Source of the DNA: a virus
Lineage: Duplodnaviria; Caudoviricetes
Strand: one strand, 5' to 3'
IMG/VR virus record: IMGVR_UViG_3300021087_001082
Coordinates: 1 to 64,000 of that record
Length of the DNA: 64,000 bases
Shown here piece by piece: positions 730 through 25,614 of this stretch. A model generated the notes under the pieces. That model did no database searches and was not told the origin of the DNA. It was given only the letters and a program-made list of their open reading frames with translations. Both the position numbers and the translations under genes were made by a program. Each line of letters begins with the position of its first letter. Position 1 is the first letter of the stretch.

Positions 730-991
730 AAAGACCTAAGCATTCTGAGTTAGTGGTAGATCGTGGTCAGAGGTACGGCGGAGGTTCGTTGACCGAAGCT
801 GTAGGGTAACTTCCCCTTCAATGACTCTGAGGTAAGAATGTTATGTGTGAATGTTGTGGATATAAGCAGTCATCAATTTGGTGACAGTAACCACATACAC
901 TGGAGCGGCGATGACGATTCGTGAGAAGTTCGCAGGCCAAAGGTTCCAGGTATCGACGTACAAGGACGGACACATGGTCTTTCTTTTTTTT
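728..991 (+). ncRNA. putative structured ncRNA, unknown class (~257 nt)
   Basis: ORF-free GC-richer gap; AGAAAGACC (728-736) pairs with GGTCTTTCT (976-984), followed by a T run; internal helices such as TCAGAG/CTCTGA and GTCATCA-ATT-TGGTGAC. Confidence 0.6.
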
Positions 992-2330: not shown

Positions 2331-2532
2331 GATTTGTTGGGTAAACGACAGCTTGTAGGTCACTCGGAGGTAGACCGGCAAGGCTTGTACAAGTGCTCTA
2401 CTCTGGAGAAATTTAAGGTGTTATGTGGGAAGGCCAACGGTATGCGCCAACGGACGATACATAACTTAGGGAATGATGTGTCACTCGGTGATACCCTCTC
2501 ATTCGCACATCCAGAGCTCTACCCAACAAATC
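2331..2532 (+). ncRNA. putative structured ncRNA, unknown class (~202 nt)
   Basis: perfect 13-bp terminal helix GATTTGTTGGGTA/TACCCAACAAATC; nested CTCTGGA/TCCAGAG, GTTATGT/ACATAAC and GAATGA/TCATTC helices; ends 10 nt before tRNA-Asp. Confidence 0.65.
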
Positions 2533-3577: not shown

Positions 3578-3653
3578 AGGTGTTTAGCTCAGATGGGAGA
3601 GCAGGTGTTTAACAGGCATCAGGTCGCTGGTTCGATCCCAGCAACACCTACCA
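3578..3653 (+). tRNA. tRNA-Val with AAC anticodon (A34)
   Basis: AGGTGTT/AACACCT acceptor, Val-type D arm AGCTCAGATGGGAGAGC, anticodon arm GGTGT-TT-AAC-AG-GCATC, A73 and CCA. Confidence 0.9.
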
Positions 3654-3664
3654 TTAGGAAAAAA

Positions 3665-3874
3665 ATGAAAAGGCTATTATTAATTTTTACAATGATGGCA
3701 ACATGGATAGTTGTTAGTTGCAGCAGTACAGCAGGATGTTTTGGGCATTGGGTTAAAGGGCCAGGCCCTCAAAGAGGGACTAGAGATCTTAATCGAGACG
3801 CTAAATTACCTTATTACCAATGTGTAGATGAGAATAACAAAGGTAGTAATTTAGAAAGACGGAGTTCCCCGTGA
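3665..3874 (+). CDS. small putative lipoprotein
   Basis: MKRLLLIFTMMATWIVVSC signal peptide ending in a lipobox-like Cys; likely start lies after the tRNA. Confidence 0.55.
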   Translation: MKRLLLIFTMMATWIVVSCSSTAGCFGHWVKGPGPQRGTRDLNRDAKLPYYQCVDENNKGSNLERRSSP

Positions 3875-4070: not shown

Positions 4071-4289
4071 ATGGATAGTCAAAGTGCACAACGGACCAAA
4101 ACCGAAGACGTATCGGAAGAGATAGATCTATGCGTTCTTTGTAAAGAACCTACCAATTATAAAATTTCAGATCATATAGATAAAAGAAGAGACTACATAG
4201 AAGGCATGGGCCAAGTATGTAGTAGGTGTAGTTATACTCATCGGCAATATAAAAGCAATGAAGTGACAGACATGTTATATGATATATGA
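4071..4289 (+). CDS. small Zn-ribbon-like protein
   Basis: CVLC...YIEGMGQVCSRC. Confidence 0.6.
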   Translation: MDSQSAQRTKTEDVSEEIDLCVLCKEPTNYKISDHIDKRRDYIEGMGQVCSRCSYTHRQYKSNEVTDMLYDI

Positions 4290-5623
4290 ATCCTAAAGAC
4301 CATCCAACATATTGCCATTACCCTTTTAAGGCTATGACGTTTAAAAAGTGGTCTACAGATGGTAGACGACCAACAAATGTAACGCCTTGCTGTATGATGA
4401 TGAATCCTGTGGAACAAAAGGGAGAGGCTGCAGATATGCATTACAACATGGGTCTTTCCGAAAAGGCGTTAGCAGGAATGAATCCCCTTGAAATATTTAA
4501 TTCTCCTCAATACGAAAAGTTAAGAAACGATTTAACGAATGGTATAAAGAATGAAGCATGTTCTGTCTGCTGGAGGATGGAAGAAAAAGGTTTAGAATCG
4601 TTTAGACAATGTTCTGATTTATATGGAGGCACTGAAGGTCTATTTGAATTTGACATTACACTCTCTAACCTTTGTAACCTAGCTTGTAGAATGTGCAATG
4701 TTGGAAGTTCTCATCAGATAGGTAAAGATGTGGACGCTATGGTTAAGAATGGTACTCACGATGAATTTATGAGCGTAAGTGATAGAGCAATGCCAATAGA
4801 GAAAGGTGTTATCTATGATAAAGAGTCTAACGAAGTAATTGATTGGTTAATGAATAATACTCATCAGATAAAAATGTTAAAAGCATCTGGTGGAGAACCT
4901 TTTTATGATAGACGAGTTGTAAAGGTATTAGAAAAGTATGTTGAAGATGGCACTGCTAAAAATACAACTTTAAAGTTCCATACTAATGCTACTCAATTTA
5001 CACCTGAGTTAGCAAATCTATTAAACAACTTTAAAGAACAGGGCCACACATTTAGTATAGATGGCACACAAAGAACATATAATTATATTAGACACAATTC
5101 TAATTGGGGTGATTTAAATAATAGTTTAGATTGTTATTTAAGTAGGTGTAAAAATGTTAAACATCAATATTTTAATATGGTGTTATCTGGTATTAATGTT
5201 TTAAATGCTGCTGACTATATTGAATGGATTTGTATCAAATGTAAATCATTTGAAGTTCCTGATTGGTATATACATTTTGCTGAAATGTTTCCGGGTAATA
5301 GGGGAACATCAATTAAAAATATTCCCATAGAACTTTTAGAAGAATCATTAGATAGACTTATAGAAGTAATAGATTCCGGTATATCAACTGTCGCTGATTC
5401 AGATACTGTACATGCAACTATAAGAGGAAAAGAATATAAGTCATGGTATAGATTTAATATTCATAATTTAGTTGGACAAATACAAAACGCAATTAATAAT
5501 CATAACGGGGATTATAAGAAGTTTCAAAGAGAATTAGTTATTTTAGATAATGTTAGAAATCAATCCTATAAGGATTATATAGACCCTTTATTAGTAAAAC
5601 ATCTGGATAATATAAATGTATAA
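4286..5623 (+). CDS. radical SAM protein with N-terminal SPASM/twitch-like Cys domain
   Basis: CNLACRMC (CxxxCxxC), SGGEPF, HTNAT; N-terminal CHYPF...PCC...CSVC. Confidence 0.9.
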   Translation: MNPKDHPTYCHYPFKAMTFKKWSTDGRRPTNVTPCCMMMNPVEQKGEAADMHYNMGLSEKALAGMNPLEIFNSPQYEKLRNDLTNGIKNEACSVCWRMEEKGLESFRQCSDLYGGTEGLFEFDITLSNLCNLACRMCNVGSSHQIGKDVDAMVKNGTHDEFMSVSDRAMPIEKGVIYDKESNEVIDWLMNNTHQIKMLKASGGEPFYDRRVVKVLEKYVEDGTAKNTTLKFHTNATQFTPELANLLNNFKEQGHTFSIDGTQRTYNYIRHNSNWGDLNNSLDCYLSRCKNVKHQYFNMVLSGINVLNAADYIEWICIKCKSFEVPDWYIHFAEMFPGNRGTSIKNIPIELLEESLDRLIEVIDSGISTVADSDTVHATIRGKEYKSWYRFNIHNLVGQIQNAINNHNGDYKKFQRELVILDNVRNQSYKDYIDPLLVKHLDNINV

Positions 5624-8195: not shown

Positions 8196-10145
8196 ATGTT
8201 GCCAAAGAAAAAAGATAATTTAGAAAATCCGTTAGGTTATCCACTAGAAGAACATTTGCCTGAAATTAAATCCATAATAGGAAAATATAATAATACTTTA
8301 TATACACCTAATGGTATAACTAGTGATTGGTCAAATTATAAATTACATTTACAACAAACTAAACCTAATTTAAAACCTAGAGTTTTATTTCTTAGTCATG
8401 ATATAAGTGAAATAGAAAATATTACTTTAATGGCATTGGGTGGTATAGTTCGTGACATGAATGGTGAACGATATTATTTGTTAGTTAATGAAAGTAATAT
8501 ACACAAAACATATGAAGTAATAGAACAATTTAAACCCGATTGGATAGGAATTAGTTTATATACCGGTGTCAGTAATTATTTTTTTGATTGGGTTAAACAA
8601 TATAAATTTTCAAATAAAAAAACAATACCTATAATAATTGGCGGTCATTATAATAATTATAATTTTAAAGAAGCAAAAGAATTTGGTGGAGATTATGTTG
8701 TAAGAGGAAAGGGAATTAATATTTTTAGAGATATATTATTAGGATTATATCGACCAGGAATATATCACGATCCTATGCCTTATGCTAATATTCCTCGTAT
8801 GGATAGAGAAAAATTTTATGAAGACACTTTTAATTTTTCAGACAAAACTAAAATATATGCATTGAGTGAAGTTAAATCTGTTCTTACTGCTCTTGGTTGT
8901 GCATATTCTTGCACATATTGTTATATAAGTTCTTTAATAGAAAATTTAAAAGAAGCATATGATGGATCAAATATTTTACCTCCTAGTATAATACAAGATA
9001 GACCAATAGAAACTCTAATCGAAGAAGGTAAAGATATATTAAGATTAGATGAAAAATATAATATTAAAACAACAGCGATATTTGATCAAGCAGATATTTC
9101 TCTTAATAATATTAAATGGTGGAAAGAGTTAAGTGTTAGATGGAAAGAAATTAATATACCATTTTATATACAAGCTAGACCAGGAATGTTGGCGGGTAAA
9201 GGTGGTAAAGATAGAATAAATATTATTTCAAAAAATAACATAGTAGCAGGTATATCTATGGCAATAGAATCGGGTGATCCTAATATTAGAAAATTATTAT
9301 TAGACAGACACGAATCTAATGAAACTATCATAGATGCTATTAACAATGTTAAACAATTTAATATAGAATTAAGAACACAAGCAATAGTCGGATTACCAAC
9401 AGTTAAACCAAAACAATATGTAAAGCCATCTAAGGACTTGCCGTTAAAAGAATATTATTATGAAGACCCTATACAAGAGTCTTTAAAATGTTTAGATCTA
9501 ATTTCTAAATCTAATTTTAGAAAAGAAGATTATTATTGGAATGCACTCTATTCCCCATTTCCGGGAACCCCTTTAGGAGATTATTCTGTTGCTGCTGGAT
9601 TTGCTAATGATAATACAAACTCCAATATATATCAATTTACACAAGATAGTGGATTAAATTGTTTCACAGGAAATATACTAAAAAGACAAATTGCATTTAG
9701 CCAAACATCAAATTTTTTCTCGCATTTAAAAAATGCAAAGGACATGATGACATTATTTCTTTATGGGAATAACGATTTTGATTTGAATGTATATGCAGAT
9801 TTTATTAATAAGAATCGGAAATTATTTAAATTTAAACAACAATCAAATAATAAAGAAATATTTCCTGATGTAAATAAACATGAGTTAAAACTATTTTTTG
9901 ATTATGCATATAAAAACAATAAACCTTTTAAAAAAATAAATCTTAAATTAATACCATATTATCTAAATTTATATGATGGTATTATTTTGGCTGCAAAAGT
10001 AGCAGTTGACTTTTTTAATAAAGAACATTATAATTTAAAAGAATTTTATAGAACAGAACGATTGCATTATTATGATTACAACTATAATAAACATTATATT
10101 CCCAAAGAATATAAAGAATTTCTAACAAATTTATTATCTTATTGA
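8196..10145 (+). CDS. B12-binding-domain radical SAM protein
   Basis: KPDWIGISLYT and IIIGGHY cobalamin-binding fold, GCAYSCTYC, AIESGD, PFPGTPL; noticeably more AT-rich than its neighbours. Confidence 0.85.
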   Translation: MLPKKKDNLENPLGYPLEEHLPEIKSIIGKYNNTLYTPNGITSDWSNYKLHLQQTKPNLKPRVLFLSHDISEIENITLMALGGIVRDMNGERYYLLVNESNIHKTYEVIEQFKPDWIGISLYTGVSNYFFDWVKQYKFSNKKTIPIIIGGHYNNYNFKEAKEFGGDYVVRGKGINIFRDILLGLYRPGIYHDPMPYANIPRMDREKFYEDTFNFSDKTKIYALSEVKSVLTALGCAYSCTYCYISSLIENLKEAYDGSNILPPSIIQDRPIETLIEEGKDILRLDEKYNIKTTAIFDQADISLNNIKWWKELSVRWKEINIPFYIQARPGMLAGKGGKDRINIISKNNIVAGISMAIESGDPNIRKLLLDRHESNETIIDAINNVKQFNIELRTQAIVGLPTVKPKQYVKPSKDLPLKEYYYEDPIQESLKCLDLISKSNFRKEDYYWNALYSPFPGTPLGDYSVAAGFANDNTNSNIYQFTQDSGLNCFTGNILKRQIAFSQTSNFFSHLKNAKDMMTLFLYGNNDFDLNVYADFINKNRKLFKFKQQSNNKEIFPDVNKHELKLFFDYAYKNNKPFKKINLKLIPYYLNLYDGIILAAKVAVDFFNKEHYNLKEFYRTERLHYYDYNYNKHYIPKEYKEFLTNLLSY

Positions 10146-10273
10146 AATCATTATAGATATTTGTTTATCAATGATATCAACACCCTCTAATTATCCTATT
10201 GAAATCATTGATAATCTTTTATCAGCAATGATATCAACGGTTTCTAATTATCCTATTGAAATCATTGATAATC
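10137..10273. repeat. ~2.5 copies of a 57-bp tandem unit upstream of an early promoter
   Basis: TATTGAAATCATT at 10140, 10197 and 10254; CAATGATATCAAC at 10169 and 10226. Confidence 0.9.
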
Positions 10274-10280
10274 ATTTCTG

Positions 10281-18276: not shown

Positions 18277-19488
18277 ATGTACACACAAGATGATGTTGAT
18301 CGATTAAGTGGCTCGGTCCATATTGAATACACACTTGCAAAGCTAGGAGCAGCAAAATTACGTAAAAAATTAACGAATCAAAAATACGTTAGTGCACTTG
18401 GGGCATTAACAGGCAACCAAGCAATGCAACAAGCAAAGGCTGGGTTAGATTCAGTTTACCTTTCGGGGTGGCAAGTAGCAGGCGATGCTAATGATAGTTT
18501 AGAGATGTATCCTGATCAATCTCTTTATGCAGTTAGCAGTGTACCCACAGTAGTTAAAAGAATTAATAATACATTTATTAGAGCAGATCAAATTCAATGG
18601 ATGGAGGGAAGAGGTGACCCAGGTTTTAATCATATTGATTATTTTTTGCCAATTATTGCTGATGCTGAGTCCGGTTTTGGCGGTGTTCTTAATACACATG
18701 AACTAGTGAAAGATTTAATCGAAGCAGGAGCAGCAGGTATTCATTTAGAAGATCAATTATCGTCTGCAAAGAAATGTGGACATATGGGAGGGAAGGTTTT
18801 AGTTCCAACTCAAGAGATGGTATCTAAATTAAAGGCTTCTCGATTAGCAGCAGACATAATGGGTGTTGATACAATTATTATTGCCCGTACTGATTCATTA
18901 GCCGGAGCATTATTAGTTACTGATGCTGACGCACATGATAATAGATTCATAACAGGTGATCGTACTGATGAAGGTTTCTTTAGAGTGGAAGCAGGAATGG
19001 ATCAAGCAGTTGCAAGGGGTATTTCATATGCTCCCTATTGTGATTTAATTTGGATGGAAACTGGTAATCCCGACATTGGTGAAATAACAGAATTTACAAA
19101 AGAAGTTCGTAAAGAGTTTCCTAATAAACAGTTTGCATATAACTGTTCACCATCTTTTAATTGGAAGAAGAAGTTATCTGATAGTGAAATAAGTTCCTTT
19201 AAAGATGAGCTCGGCGAGCTAGGTGTTACATATCAATTTATAACACTAGCAGGATTTCACTCATTGAATTATAGCATGTTTGAATTATCTGAGAACTATA
19301 GAGACAACGGAATGTCTGGTTATGTTGAATTACAAGAAAAAGAATTCGCAGCTCAGAAGAGAGGTTTTACAGCAGTGAAACATCAACGTGAAGTTGGCGC
19401 TAGTTATTTTGATGAAATTAATCAAATGTGTACTAATAGTACAGAACTTAGTTCATTAGAAGGATCAACAGAAAAAGAACAGTTCTAA
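18277..19488 (+). CDS. aceA: isocitrate lyase
   Basis: YLSGWQVA, YPDQSLY, PIIADAESGFGG, catalytic KKCGHMGGKVL, AYNCSPSFNW, QFITLAGFH, HQREVG, STEKEQF C-terminus. Confidence 0.97.
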   Translation: MYTQDDVDRLSGSVHIEYTLAKLGAAKLRKKLTNQKYVSALGALTGNQAMQQAKAGLDSVYLSGWQVAGDANDSLEMYPDQSLYAVSSVPTVVKRINNTFIRADQIQWMEGRGDPGFNHIDYFLPIIADAESGFGGVLNTHELVKDLIEAGAAGIHLEDQLSSAKKCGHMGGKVLVPTQEMVSKLKASRLAADIMGVDTIIIARTDSLAGALLVTDADAHDNRFITGDRTDEGFFRVEAGMDQAVARGISYAPYCDLIWMETGNPDIGEITEFTKEVRKEFPNKQFAYNCSPSFNWKKKLSDSEISSFKDELGELGVTYQFITLAGFHSLNYSMFELSENYRDNGMSGYVELQEKEFAAQKRGFTAVKHQREVGASYFDEINQMCTNSTELSSLEGSTEKEQF

Positions 19489-20210: not shown

Positions 20211-20903
20211 GTGATACATGTATTCGGTGATTCATATTGTGATCCTCTCAATGGAAAGGGTGGAGGAATATCATCAGAAAAAAGGTGGTTCAATCTTTTA
20301 GACGAGCCTTCATTTGTTTTTGGTTTAGCGGGTTCTAGTATTGATTGGTCTTTGAATGTTTTTCTTGAAGGGCATAGGCATAGAGAAGGCAAAGTAATTT
20401 TTATTGAATCTATTCCAAGAAGATTTCATTTTGAGTTCTTACAATATCCCGGCCATGCAGGTGCGGTTCTATTTGATGATATGAAAGAGTGGGAAAATGA
20501 TAAATGGCTTTCATCACCACAAATGATATACCTTAATCAACATAAAAAGTTTATAGAATATTTTCATATAAATTATAAGGACTATCATAAAGCAACAAAA
20601 ACAAGATGTACGTTAAAAGCTTTATCCGATCAATATGAGAAGGTCATTTACTTTGCCACATCACATAATAGAAATTTATATGCCCCTGCGGAAATAGAAA
20701 ATACAGAAAAATTTATTATACCTGACATAACATTAATGGATATATCTCGAGCAGAGATAAAGAACGATTATGATCCTTCATTTAAAGATTGGAGATCAAA
20801 TCATTTTACAGAAGAGAATCATATAAATTTATCATCTTATATAAAGAGATTGTTTAATAATGAACCTGTGAATGATATAATATTTAATAAGAATGTGATA
20901 TGA
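20211..20903 (+). CDS. SGNH/GDSL-like hydrolase
   Basis: VFGDSY, GLAGSS, C-terminal NHFTEENH. Confidence 0.65.
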   Translation: MIHVFGDSYCDPLNGKGGGISSEKRWFNLLDEPSFVFGLAGSSIDWSLNVFLEGHRHREGKVIFIESIPRRFHFEFLQYPGHAGAVLFDDMKEWENDKWLSSPQMIYLNQHKKFIEYFHINYKDYHKATKTRCTLKALSDQYEKVIYFATSHNRNLYAPAEIENTEKFIIPDITLMDISRAEIKNDYDPSFKDWRSNHFTEENHINLSSYIKRLFNNEPVNDIIFNKNVI

Positions 20904-22348
20904 TATATTGGGGTATTACTTGTGGATCACATGACGGTGCTTTAGCTGTTTATGATAGTGCGAAACAAGAGGTTCTATTTGCAACCGACGCTGAAAGATT
21001 CTCTAGAAAAAAGAACGATCCTCAAATACCTTTAAGCTTGTTAGATTATGTGAGAGAAGAATATGATGTCCCGGATAAAATTTATTTTTATGAGGATCCT
21101 CGTATAAAGATTTCTCGAAGATGGTATGCTGGACAGAAGCCAGCTTGGAAACCACCTGTGTTACCACATCCTTATAATACTAAACATTATAAGATGAAGT
21201 ATACCTCGCATCATAGGTCACATGCGACATATGGTTATTATACATCTCCTTTTACTGAATGTATGATATTATGTATTGATGCTATAGGAGAATGGGAAAC
21301 ATTAACTACTTGGTACGTTAAAGATCATAAATTTAAAAAATTATGGAACTGGAAATATCCTAAGTCTTTAGGATTAATGTATTCAGCATTGACACAGTAC
21401 TCAGGTTGGAAACCCAATGAAGAAGAATATATTATGATGGGGGCTGCTGCTAGACAATCATATCCATATGATGTAGTAGTAAATAGAATTAGAGATTGTT
21501 GGGAAACAAAAAATATAACCTGGCATAAAGGATGTAATAATATTCCAGAGTGGAATGTGAAACCAGAAATACATCCTCAGGATGTACCTACTGCTGCACA
21601 ACATGTTTATGAAGAAGAGTTTCGTAAAGTATTAGGCCTATTAAGTCAACATAAGTTAAATAATGGAAATATAGTATTCGTGGGAGGATGTGCTTTAAAT
21701 GTTAGTGCCAATAGATTTTTATCTGATTATTTTTCTAATATCTATATACCAGCTAATCCAGGTGACTCTGGATCTGCTATTGGATGTATTCTTGCAAGAA
21801 CAAGAAACCATATTAGTCCTACTCCTTATCTTGGTTATGATATACAAGGACCGTATCCGTCCAAAGAAATAATTGAACACTTGATGATCGATCGAGTGGT
21901 TGGAGTAGCAAACGGAAAATGCGAATTCGGACCACGTGCTTTAGGTAATAGAACACTCTTCGGAGATCCTACTGATAAAAAAATAAAACAAAAAATAAAT
22001 GAAACAAAGGGTAGAGAACAGTTCAGACCTTTTGCTCCGATGATATTACCTGAAGACGTGGCACAGTATTTTAATGGTGGATTTCATTCACCTTATATGA
22101 GTTGCGCATTATCAGCAACAGAAGAATTTAAACAGAAATATCCTGGTGTTGTTCATTTAGATGGAACATCAAGATTACAAGTTGTTGATTCAGAACCTCA
22201 TATAACATTATTAAAAATTTGGAAGGAGATAACAGGATGTCCTGTATTATTAAACACTTCCTTAAATGTAAAGGGACAACCAATTGTCAACACAAGAGAA
22301 GAAGCCGAAGCTTTCACTAAGAGAACAGGTGTTACTGTTCTTTCTTAA
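20900..22348 (+). CDS. carbamoyltransferase (NodU/CmcH family)
   Basis: HDGA, ERFSRKKND, HHRSHA, DAIGE, GGCALN, EFGPRALGNR, FRPFAP, LLNTSLN. Confidence 0.95.
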   Translation: MIYWGITCGSHDGALAVYDSAKQEVLFATDAERFSRKKNDPQIPLSLLDYVREEYDVPDKIYFYEDPRIKISRRWYAGQKPAWKPPVLPHPYNTKHYKMKYTSHHRSHATYGYYTSPFTECMILCIDAIGEWETLTTWYVKDHKFKKLWNWKYPKSLGLMYSALTQYSGWKPNEEEYIMMGAAARQSYPYDVVVNRIRDCWETKNITWHKGCNNIPEWNVKPEIHPQDVPTAAQHVYEEEFRKVLGLLSQHKLNNGNIVFVGGCALNVSANRFLSDYFSNIYIPANPGDSGSAIGCILARTRNHISPTPYLGYDIQGPYPSKEIIEHLMIDRVVGVANGKCEFGPRALGNRTLFGDPTDKKIKQKINETKGREQFRPFAPMILPEDVAQYFNGGFHSPYMSCALSATEEFKQKYPGVVHLDGTSRLQVVDSEPHITLLKIWKEITGCPVLLNTSLNVKGQPIVNTREEAEAFTKRTGVTVLS

Positions 22349-25521: not shown

Positions 25522-25614
25522 TGGCTCTGGGGGTTGGATTCGAACCAACACGCCCCTCTGCAAAAGGGACAATACGTAAACAACGCATCACGTCTACCGT
25601 TTCGTCACCCCAGA
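25522..25614 (-). tRNA. non-canonical type II tRNA, anticodon GTT, 93 nt
   Basis: TCTGGGG TG ACG AAACGGTAGA CGT G ATGCG TT GTT TA CGTAT [22-nt variable arm TGTCCCTTTTGCAGAGGGGCGT] GTTGG TTCGAAT CCAAC CCCCAGA G CCA. Confidence 0.88.

Follow-up and report, generated by a model that had tools for sequence, protein, structure and literature searches.

The 64,000-nt stretch of DNA analysed here (the window; IMG/VR record IMGVR_UViG_3300021087_001082) covers the first 64 kb of a contig of 76.8 kb from an uncultured virus (estimated completeness 44%), and contains close upstream of a gene for tRNA-Asp an element (positions 2331-2532, + strand) that we identify with high confidence as the gene for a folded non-coding RNA. 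The element belongs, as a divergent member of the window type, to an uncatalogued RNA family that is described here by means of a covariance model (R1) and occurs in uncultured marine T4-like myoviruses. Comparison of its relatives points to a fold in which a closing helix (P1) leads into a three-way junction of conserved sequence, and in which one arm (P2) and a second (P3-P4) would pair with one another at their tip loops. The mode of action of this RNA is far less certain than its being a real structured RNA gene.

An earlier note, made from the letters of this DNA alone, had proposed a structured, as yet unassigned RNA, the branched fold of which is closed by a perfect 13-bp terminal helix, and the covariation described below supports that proposal. 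The sequence GATTTGTTGGGTA (2331-2343) is indeed perfectly complementary over 13 bp to TACCCAACAAATC (2520-2532), and tRNA-Asp(GTC), which was said to lie directly downstream, begins 10 nt past the helix. This inverted repeat closes the minimum-free-energy fold of 2331-2532 (-65.6 kcal/mol, z = -2.66), which none of 200 shuffled sequences equals; since the reverse strand folds about equally well (z = -2.91, 2/200 shuffles as good), folding energy alone does not name the strand of the element. The GC content of the element is 45-47%, compared with about 30-35% in its flanks, and no family in Rfam 15 matches it at E values up to 10 (2200-2700 searched). The 9-mer GTCACTCGG, which had been noticed twice and each time at a hairpin, has exactly two occurrences in the window, at 2359 and 2480. 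Taken alone, neither the helix nor the 9-mer repeat is beyond chance: the window has one perfect 13-bp inverted repeat with a gap of 100-300 nt, compared with an average of 0.7 for 30 shuffled windows, and 215 of 5000 sequences made by dinucleotide shuffling of the element (4.3%) contain an exact 9-mer repeat. The element is judged to be real because it is conserved, and covaries, in related phage contigs.

The first relative, in contig L019, was found among contigs that share the tRNA-Asp gene; it is shorter (~165 nt), has the same position and helix ends, and differs from the window element by a G-C to A-U switch in the helix and by a largely different interior. Viral contigs scanned for the conserved 5' motif yielded a family of relatives, and a MAFFT alignment of nine sequences, the window being one of them, gave an RNAalifold structure of 43 pairs, 15 with compensatory changes, on which R1 was built. 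R1 recovered a copy outside the training set (contig L016) at 105.9 bits, and identified 93 matches in 92 of 99 metagenome loci that had been collected by a scan with an internal motif and then scored by R1, plus matches in further viral contigs. The window element, as a training row, scores 127.8 bits (E about 1e-29, model positions 1-174), and close window-type relatives outside the training set score 77-93 bits.

The 68 distinct full-length copies comprise 47 of a short main type (about 155-160 nt), 15 of a long main type (about 210 nt) and six of the window type, the last found by a scan with a motif particular to the window version (the window, L261, L244, L257, L258 and L260, of which L257 is represented by five identical copies); L259 and L238/L243 are partial window-type members. 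A main-type and a window-type copy occur together in one contig (G001), and in the viral copy of contig L238 the second element is cut by the contig end. The 76.8-kb contig that includes the window holds a single copy by both BLAST and R1, unlike a dispersed repeat or miniature inverted-repeat transposable element, of which several copies would be expected in one genome.

Covariation within this family provides the evidence for an RNA fold. When 69 distinct rows are aligned by fitting to the model, pairs form in 96.1% of cells, and 25/43 pairs change on both sides; none of 500 column shuffles reaches the observed value, and sliding the partners by 1-3 columns leaves 24-46% paired. As an alignment of this kind leans towards R1, the test was repeated on the 68 full-length copies, aligned independently with MAFFT. 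For this alignment RNAalifold predicts 30 pairs, 22 of them compensatory, and when the loop-loop contact considered below is included 98.1% of cells are paired and 25/33 pairs change on both sides; again 0/500 shuffles reach the observed value, and slid partners give 20-39% paired. G-U pairs are frequent and fit the + strand only, with, for example, UG:21 and GU:21 at two pairs.

These alignments also bear upon the possibility that a 100-amino-acid open reading frame (ORF, 2334-2636), which is open in the window and passes through both the element and tRNA-Asp, is a genuine protein-coding gene. We regard this ORF as spurious, and coding as practically untenable, because only 2/77 copies, one of these being the window itself, keep a frame open from end to end of the element, and because family members differ by 1- and 2-nt insertions and deletions; that the ORF traverses a tRNA gene is a further point against it. 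The pattern found, of covarying helices and a frame that is seldom open, is thus the reverse of the conserved ORF and non-covarying helices that the earlier note had named as telling against an RNA.

All coordinates of the parts of the RNA refer to the + strand of the window. The closing helix P1 pairs 2331-2343 with 2520-2532, as assigned from sequence and model mapping and, for the 3' strand, from family covariation; its core as shared by the family begins at 2335 (2335-2343), and six of nine P1 pairs change on both sides in the family. The first junction strand, J1/2 (AAC, 2344-2346), lies within the near-invariant motif GGUAAAYGAC evident in the alignments, and is followed by the P2 arm (2347-2398), which in the consensus fold of the window-type subfamily consists of the pairs 2347-2348/2397-2398, helix P2a (2351-2357/2388-2394) and a tip hairpin, P2b (2365-2367/2375-2377), that bears a 7-nt loop (2368-2374). 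P2 and P2b both covary in the family, and the loop of P2b has the sequence GGACGGA in main-type and AGGUAGA in window-type copies. P3, located by model mapping and by the window-type consensus, pairs 2401-2407 with 2510-2516; all seven of its pairs change on both sides, with 99.8% of cells paired in the 68 sequences. The P4 arm (2420-2465), the base pairs of which also covary, comprises a stem (2420-2426/2459-2465), inner pairs (2434-2435/2452-2453) and, by model mapping and window-type consensus, a tip hairpin (2439-2441/2446-2448, loop 2442-2445) built around a near-invariant GUACGUGC in the main type and GUAUGCGC or GUAUACGC in the window type.

Between P4 and the 3' strand of P3 the window contains an optional extra arm, P5 (2469-2506), with a stem (2471-2476/2499-2504), the additional pair G2469-C2506 and a small hairpin (2480-2484/2488-2492, loop UCG), assigned from the consensus of the six window-type sequences; an arm at this site is present in the 15 long main-type copies and absent from the 47 short ones. 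The junction strands kept in the family are GGUA-AAY-GAC, CUCUAC and GCUCU, and the window carries the GGUAAAYGAC and GCUCUAC junction motifs together with P1, P2/P2b, P3 and P4. A U-rich tract follows P1 in the family, and in the window forms the 10-nt spacer (2533-2542) that separates the element from tRNA-Asp (2543-2619; detected by ARAGORN and, at 60.4 bits, by the Rfam tRNA model).

A blind scan for runs of covarying columns pointed to three base pairs that would link the loop of P2b to that at the tip of P4. In the window the predicted contact joins 2370-2372 to 2443-2445 (G2370-C2445, U2371-G2444 and A2372-U2443), and across the family these positions can pair in 68/68 sequences, as ACG/CGU in the 62 main-type copies and as GUA/UAC or GUA/UGC in the six of the window type; the three pairs all switch together between the two types. 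We consider this contact well indicated, but not proven. As the loops of P2b and P4 would pair, the two arms are predicted to touch at their tips, giving the RNA the overall shape of a tuning fork.

Three-way junctions with kissing arms are found in hammerhead ribozymes and purine riboswitches, and the conserved junction of the present RNA, with several highly conserved loops and with arms apparently clamped by a tertiary contact, might similarly form a catalytic site or a small-molecule pocket. The likeness to the purine riboswitch aptamer or the extended hammerhead (P1, conserved three-way junction, loop-joined arms) is one of shape only: the R1 RNA is much larger and has no sequence match, its junction strands AAY, CUCUAC and GCUCU are unlike the hammerhead core, no Rfam ribozyme or riboswitch model matches even at E = 10, and there is neither an expression platform nor a consistent downstream gene. 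A ribozyme or ligand-binding RNA accordingly appears improbable to us.

The two copies of GTCACTCGG were central to a further suggestion, that the element is a 6S-like protein sponge in which the 9-mers act as duplicated binding sites. Each copy does lie in a hairpin arm, the first (2359-2367) within the P2 arm and the second (2480-2488) as stem and loop of the small P5 hairpin, RUCAC-UCG-GUGAU. This P5 hairpin is kept, with one G/A change, in four of five complete window-type relatives, and is replaced by a different hairpin in L244. In contrast, the first copy is kept in none of the seven window-type relatives (0/5 complete, 0/2 partial), where the site reads GGCGGCCGG, GACCACACGG or GGCAGACGG, and a strain variant in a contig from an RNA library also differs at this 9-mer. 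Given also that a repeat of this length arises by shuffling at the frequency noted above, and that the P5 arm is absent from the 47 short members, the 9-mer repeat is best read as coincidence. The proposed duplicated binding site is thus not supported, and neither is the likeness to 6S RNA, since a search of Rfam that included the 6S models gave no match overlapping the element up to E = 10; we attach very little credence to a sponge of this kind. Nor is the pair of 9-mers a family signature: a search of viral contigs for two copies spaced 97-127 nt apart gave 10 matches, none of which resembles the element.

Further searches served to delimit the family. A loose pattern (GAAGTTAAR...GTACGTGC) matched at least 112 loci, and among the matches listed none (0/112) reached R1 E <= 0.01, the best of these being L050 (14.1 bits, E = 0.89). 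Confirmed matches are limited to uncultured marine viral and metagenome contigs. In blastn searches of 50,697 phage records, the window stretch and a main-type copy returned only tRNA matches or none. R1 gave 0/5 in the genomes of Pelagibacter phage HTVC008M, S-CAM9, S-PRM1, marine virus AG-345-F15 and T4, with the window contig as positive control, and an exact-pattern scan of one genome from each of 185,579 prokaryote species produced four matches, none of which R1 confirmed. The R1 family has no match in Rfam 15, and the literature searched contained no description of it.

Several known classes of RNA were considered and rejected as identities for the element. For a 6S RNA, the absence of a match over 2200-2700 is accompanied by a different fold, a branched three-way junction. 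A retron non-coding RNA was set aside as reverse transcriptase (PF00078) had no match in the 76.8-kb contig (~44% complete), whilst control genomes did match, and a bacterial or phage Y RNA as TROVE (PF05731) likewise had no match in that contig and Rfam none to the element. Resemblances considered by eye to hammerhead, RNase P, 5S, signal recognition particle, phi29 pRNA and group I RNAs found no Rfam support, and the motifs did not hold.

The genomic setting of the family was analysed over 82 distinct element-plus-flank contexts, with denominators that differ for each side. A co-oriented tRNA gene begins within 25 nt downstream in 23/70 contexts (Asp 10, Tyr 7, Asn 6) and lies within 25 nt upstream in 10/80 (Asn 5, Pro 5); a tRNA is present within this distance on either side in 24/68 contexts and on both sides in 5/68. 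In the tightest cases the CCA end of the upstream tRNA is about 6 nt from P1, and 106 of the 107 tRNAs in family loci share the strand of the element, which is spaced like one more tRNA gene. The remaining copies sit between unrelated protein genes. Downstream neighbours are varied, and include glycosyltransferase-like, small basic, zinc-ribbon and nuclease-like proteins as well as tRNAs.

Promoter-like sites differ between contexts. In the commonest context without a tRNA, the next gene has a promoter-like site (11/12 positions) at or after the 3' end of the element. In the L257-type context, which belongs to the window subtype and has an upstream sequence that occurs in eight contigs, a perfect (12/12) early promoter of sigma-70 consensus type, TTGACA-17-TATAAT, ends 8-9 nt before P1; at the window locus no promoter-like site lies directly upstream of the element. 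No terminator-like site was found on the element strand at the 3' end in the window, L257-type or commonest contexts. A riboswitch or 5' leader was rejected on this evidence, namely the unrelated or tRNA neighbours downstream, the promoter-like site behind the element in the commonest context and the lack of a terminator-like site. Because the position of the element varies, from the 5' start or the 3' end of a unit to a place between tRNAs, we regard it as a free-standing RNA gene rather than a leader.

The same setting could be taken to indicate cis-acting punctuation, in which the fold would serve only its own transcript, whether by signalling processing, blocking exonucleases, stabilising a 3' end or acting as a leader to tune the tRNA or gene that follows. 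Such a role would accommodate the consistent co-orientation of the element with its neighbours, from which only a few nucleotides separate it, its occurrence at the 3' end in one unit, at the 5' start in another and between tRNAs, and the U-rich tract after P1. A simple barrier, however, would require neither the conservation of about half of the unpaired positions nor a conserved loop-loop contact, the downstream genes are unrelated to each other, and the 3' end lacks a terminator-like hairpin on the element strand. We therefore view cis action as unlikely, although it is the least unlikely of the alternatives.

Strains and relatives vary at and around the element. In an RNA-library contig, a strain with the same element (1 difference in 621 nt) departs from the window sequence downstream, switching at 2527 to an L257-type flank that lacks tRNA-Asp. 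Contig L027 (8095-8129, - strand) retains only the first ~35 nt of the element, fused upstream of a small zinc-ribbon ORF that is itself homologous to window positions 4071-4289. In L260 (near 3068, - strand) the 3' P1 strand and spacer (TTTACCCAAC) occur three times in tandem behind the element, which looks like slippage or recombination at the element end. Two relatives of the upstream ORF (1996-2316) have neither element nor tRNA behind that gene. The flank switch, the 5' remnant and the tandem triplicate point to cassette-like shuffling, as for the tRNA genes in these variable regions.

Such apparent shuffling, together with the many different flanks and the absence of the element behind the two nearest relatives of the upstream gene, raises the possibility of a selfish mobile cassette, spreading among co-infecting phages by recombination at its conserved ends with no benefit to the phage. 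Yet the 76.8-kb contig has a single copy, the neighbour clusters examined show no transposase or homing gene consistently beside the element, and the tRNA genes of these regions shuffle likewise; moreover, every helix carries compensatory changes, which indicates that selection acts on the RNA fold. A purely selfish cassette is, in our estimation, slightly more doubtful even than a ribozyme or ligand-binding RNA.

On balance, we lean towards a stable, trans-acting RNA, the rigid junction and loops of which would bind a partner during infection, probably within the sphere of tRNA or translation. According to this proposal, the element would be transcribed rightwards together with its neighbours, and the RNase P cut at 2542/2543 that matures the 5' end of tRNA-Asp would free the 3' side of the RNA. 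Release by RNase P is plausible because tRNA processing is established and because the family is packed in the manner of tRNAs (24/68 contexts). Exonucleases would then trim back to P1, which would shield both ends, and the pre-organised junction and loops of the freed, stable RNA would be available to bind a partner, either a protein or, possibly, some small molecule or a second RNA. As the element shares a tRNA island, its most likely field of action would be translation or a tRNA-related takeover, or else counter-defence.

Several observations weigh against this account or against the evidence on which it draws. Among RNA-binding and RNA-repair genes, reverse transcriptase, TROVE and RtcB each gave no match in the incompletely recovered 76.8-kb contig. 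The RNA-library contigs over the region, from the four runs considered, are of low depth and also cover the flanking ORFs, so that carry-over of DNA is possible. All three switches in the loop-loop contact fall between the same two clades, and may constitute a single evolutionary event. Finally, GGUAAAYGAC and AAAGCCAGG served as search patterns, and their conservation is consequently inflated by selection.

A more far-reaching version of the trans-acting reading would see here a new functional class of RNA, with the tuning-fork junction as a catalytic or ligand pocket or with self-assembly of the GOLLD or ROOL kind, and would have the element, a second GC-rich stretch of the window (735-985) and other neighbours of tRNA-Asp mark "RNA islands" of trans-acting RNAs kept by ocean T4-like phages next to their tRNA genes. 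This we put forward as a speculation with a rather small chance of being correct; if it were true, such an RNA-island toolkit could, for example, counter host defences that target tRNAs.

Among known RNAs, the closest in position and probable biogenesis are rnaC and rnaD (species 1 and 2 RNA) of phage T4, though without homology. These are small stable RNAs of a T4-type phage that are annotated without a function, lie on the tRNA strand and are tightly packed, with rnaD 1 nt from tRNA-Arg and rnaC 6 nt from rnaD; they are released by the enzymes of tRNA processing. The window element shares with them a position in a tRNA cluster on the same strand, 10 nt before tRNA-Asp. In contrast, rnaC and rnaD are 139 and 119 nt long compared with about 155-215 nt in the R1 family, and rnaC has a tRNA-like GGUUCGAAUCC arm that the family lacks. 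R1 gives no match at E <= 1 over the whole T4 genome, and with its filters off scores at most 4.9 bits (E > 2) on rnaC and rnaD when run over the T4 tRNA region.

The GOLLD and ROOL RNAs of phages and prophages offer a second comparison, in that a preprint (bioRxiv 10.1101/2024.12.08.627333) describes them as often lying near tRNA islands and as unexplained in function, and puts many GOLLD members above 800 nt. The Rfam models of GOLLD and ROOL match neither the element nor its relatives. With ROOL at roughly 580 nt, the R1 family, at about 155-215 nt, is several-fold smaller than either. A catalogue of IMG/VR sequences is described as containing 8,495 unnamed covarying candidate RNA motifs with no function assigned (Fremin et al. 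2023, PMC10690425), and the R1 family may be among these. The R1 family is a new one within a known but unexplained category of phage RNAs beside tRNAs.

Half a century after rnaC and rnaD were described in T4, we know of no function for the small stable RNAs beside phage tRNA genes. The R1 family represents a compact and richly covarying case (about 160-215 nt) that is abundant in ocean T4-like phages, and its clear secondary structure, testable tertiary contact and natural short, long and window variants make it a tractable subject for study. It also indicates that where the variable regions of these phages are GC-rich and poor in genes they contain RNA genes, rather than junk or missed ORFs.

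The window as a whole is AT-rich. Among its products are a ribonucleotide reductase and a family-B DNA polymerase that shares about 50% identity with the enzymes of T4-like marine cyanomyoviruses (Kyanoviridae). Its first 4 kb consist of short ORFs interspersed with genes for tRNA-Asn, tRNA-Asp, tRNA-Val and tRNA-Gly, all on the + strand. The second GC-rich stretch of this region (735-985, + strand; 45-48% GC) has no good ORF and a helix of its own (724-736/976-988). Homologues with 74-78% identity are present in at least five other contigs, and in two of these (L164 and L176) stand in tandem 13-14 nt upstream of an R1-family element. Four sequences give 74 predicted pairs, 21 with compensatory changes, and no Rfam match, and the stretch probably represents a further orphan RNA family.

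Other GC-rich non-coding stretches of ~200 nt lie immediately upstream of the same tRNA-Asp, or between tRNAs, in related contigs (L014:12445-12659(-), L016:4438-4652(-); L018:4539-4778(-), L015:8503-8742, L020:7899-8103). They fall into two further sequence types, with motifs common within each type and no R1 or Rfam match, and the phage tRNA islands examined here seem to hold several distinct RNA families.

Within the tRNA region, tRNA-Val (3578-3653, + strand) has the anticodon AAC, an A at the wobble position being unusual for a bacterial-type tRNA-Val. The segment between this gene and tRNA-Gly (3665-3874, + strand) is not RNA-like, and instead contains a small ORF that starts MKRLLLIFTMMATWIVVSCSS, which looks like a lipoprotein signal, and has 80-88% DNA identity to L241 and L014. 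A 93-nt "tRNA-Asn" called by ARAGORN at 25522-25614 (- strand) is not reported by the Rfam tRNA model and is probably a false call.

Three 57-nt tandem units (10133-10274, + strand), each containing the inverted repeat TTGAAATCATT...AATGATATCAA, lie at and just beyond the end of a gene for a B12-binding radical-SAM enzyme (8196-10145). This is one of the auxiliary metabolic genes of the window, situated at 18277-19488, 20900-22348, 4286-5623 and 8196-10145, which encode an isocitrate lyase (E = 2.4e-97), a carbamoyltransferase and two radical-SAM enzymes, including the B12-binding one.

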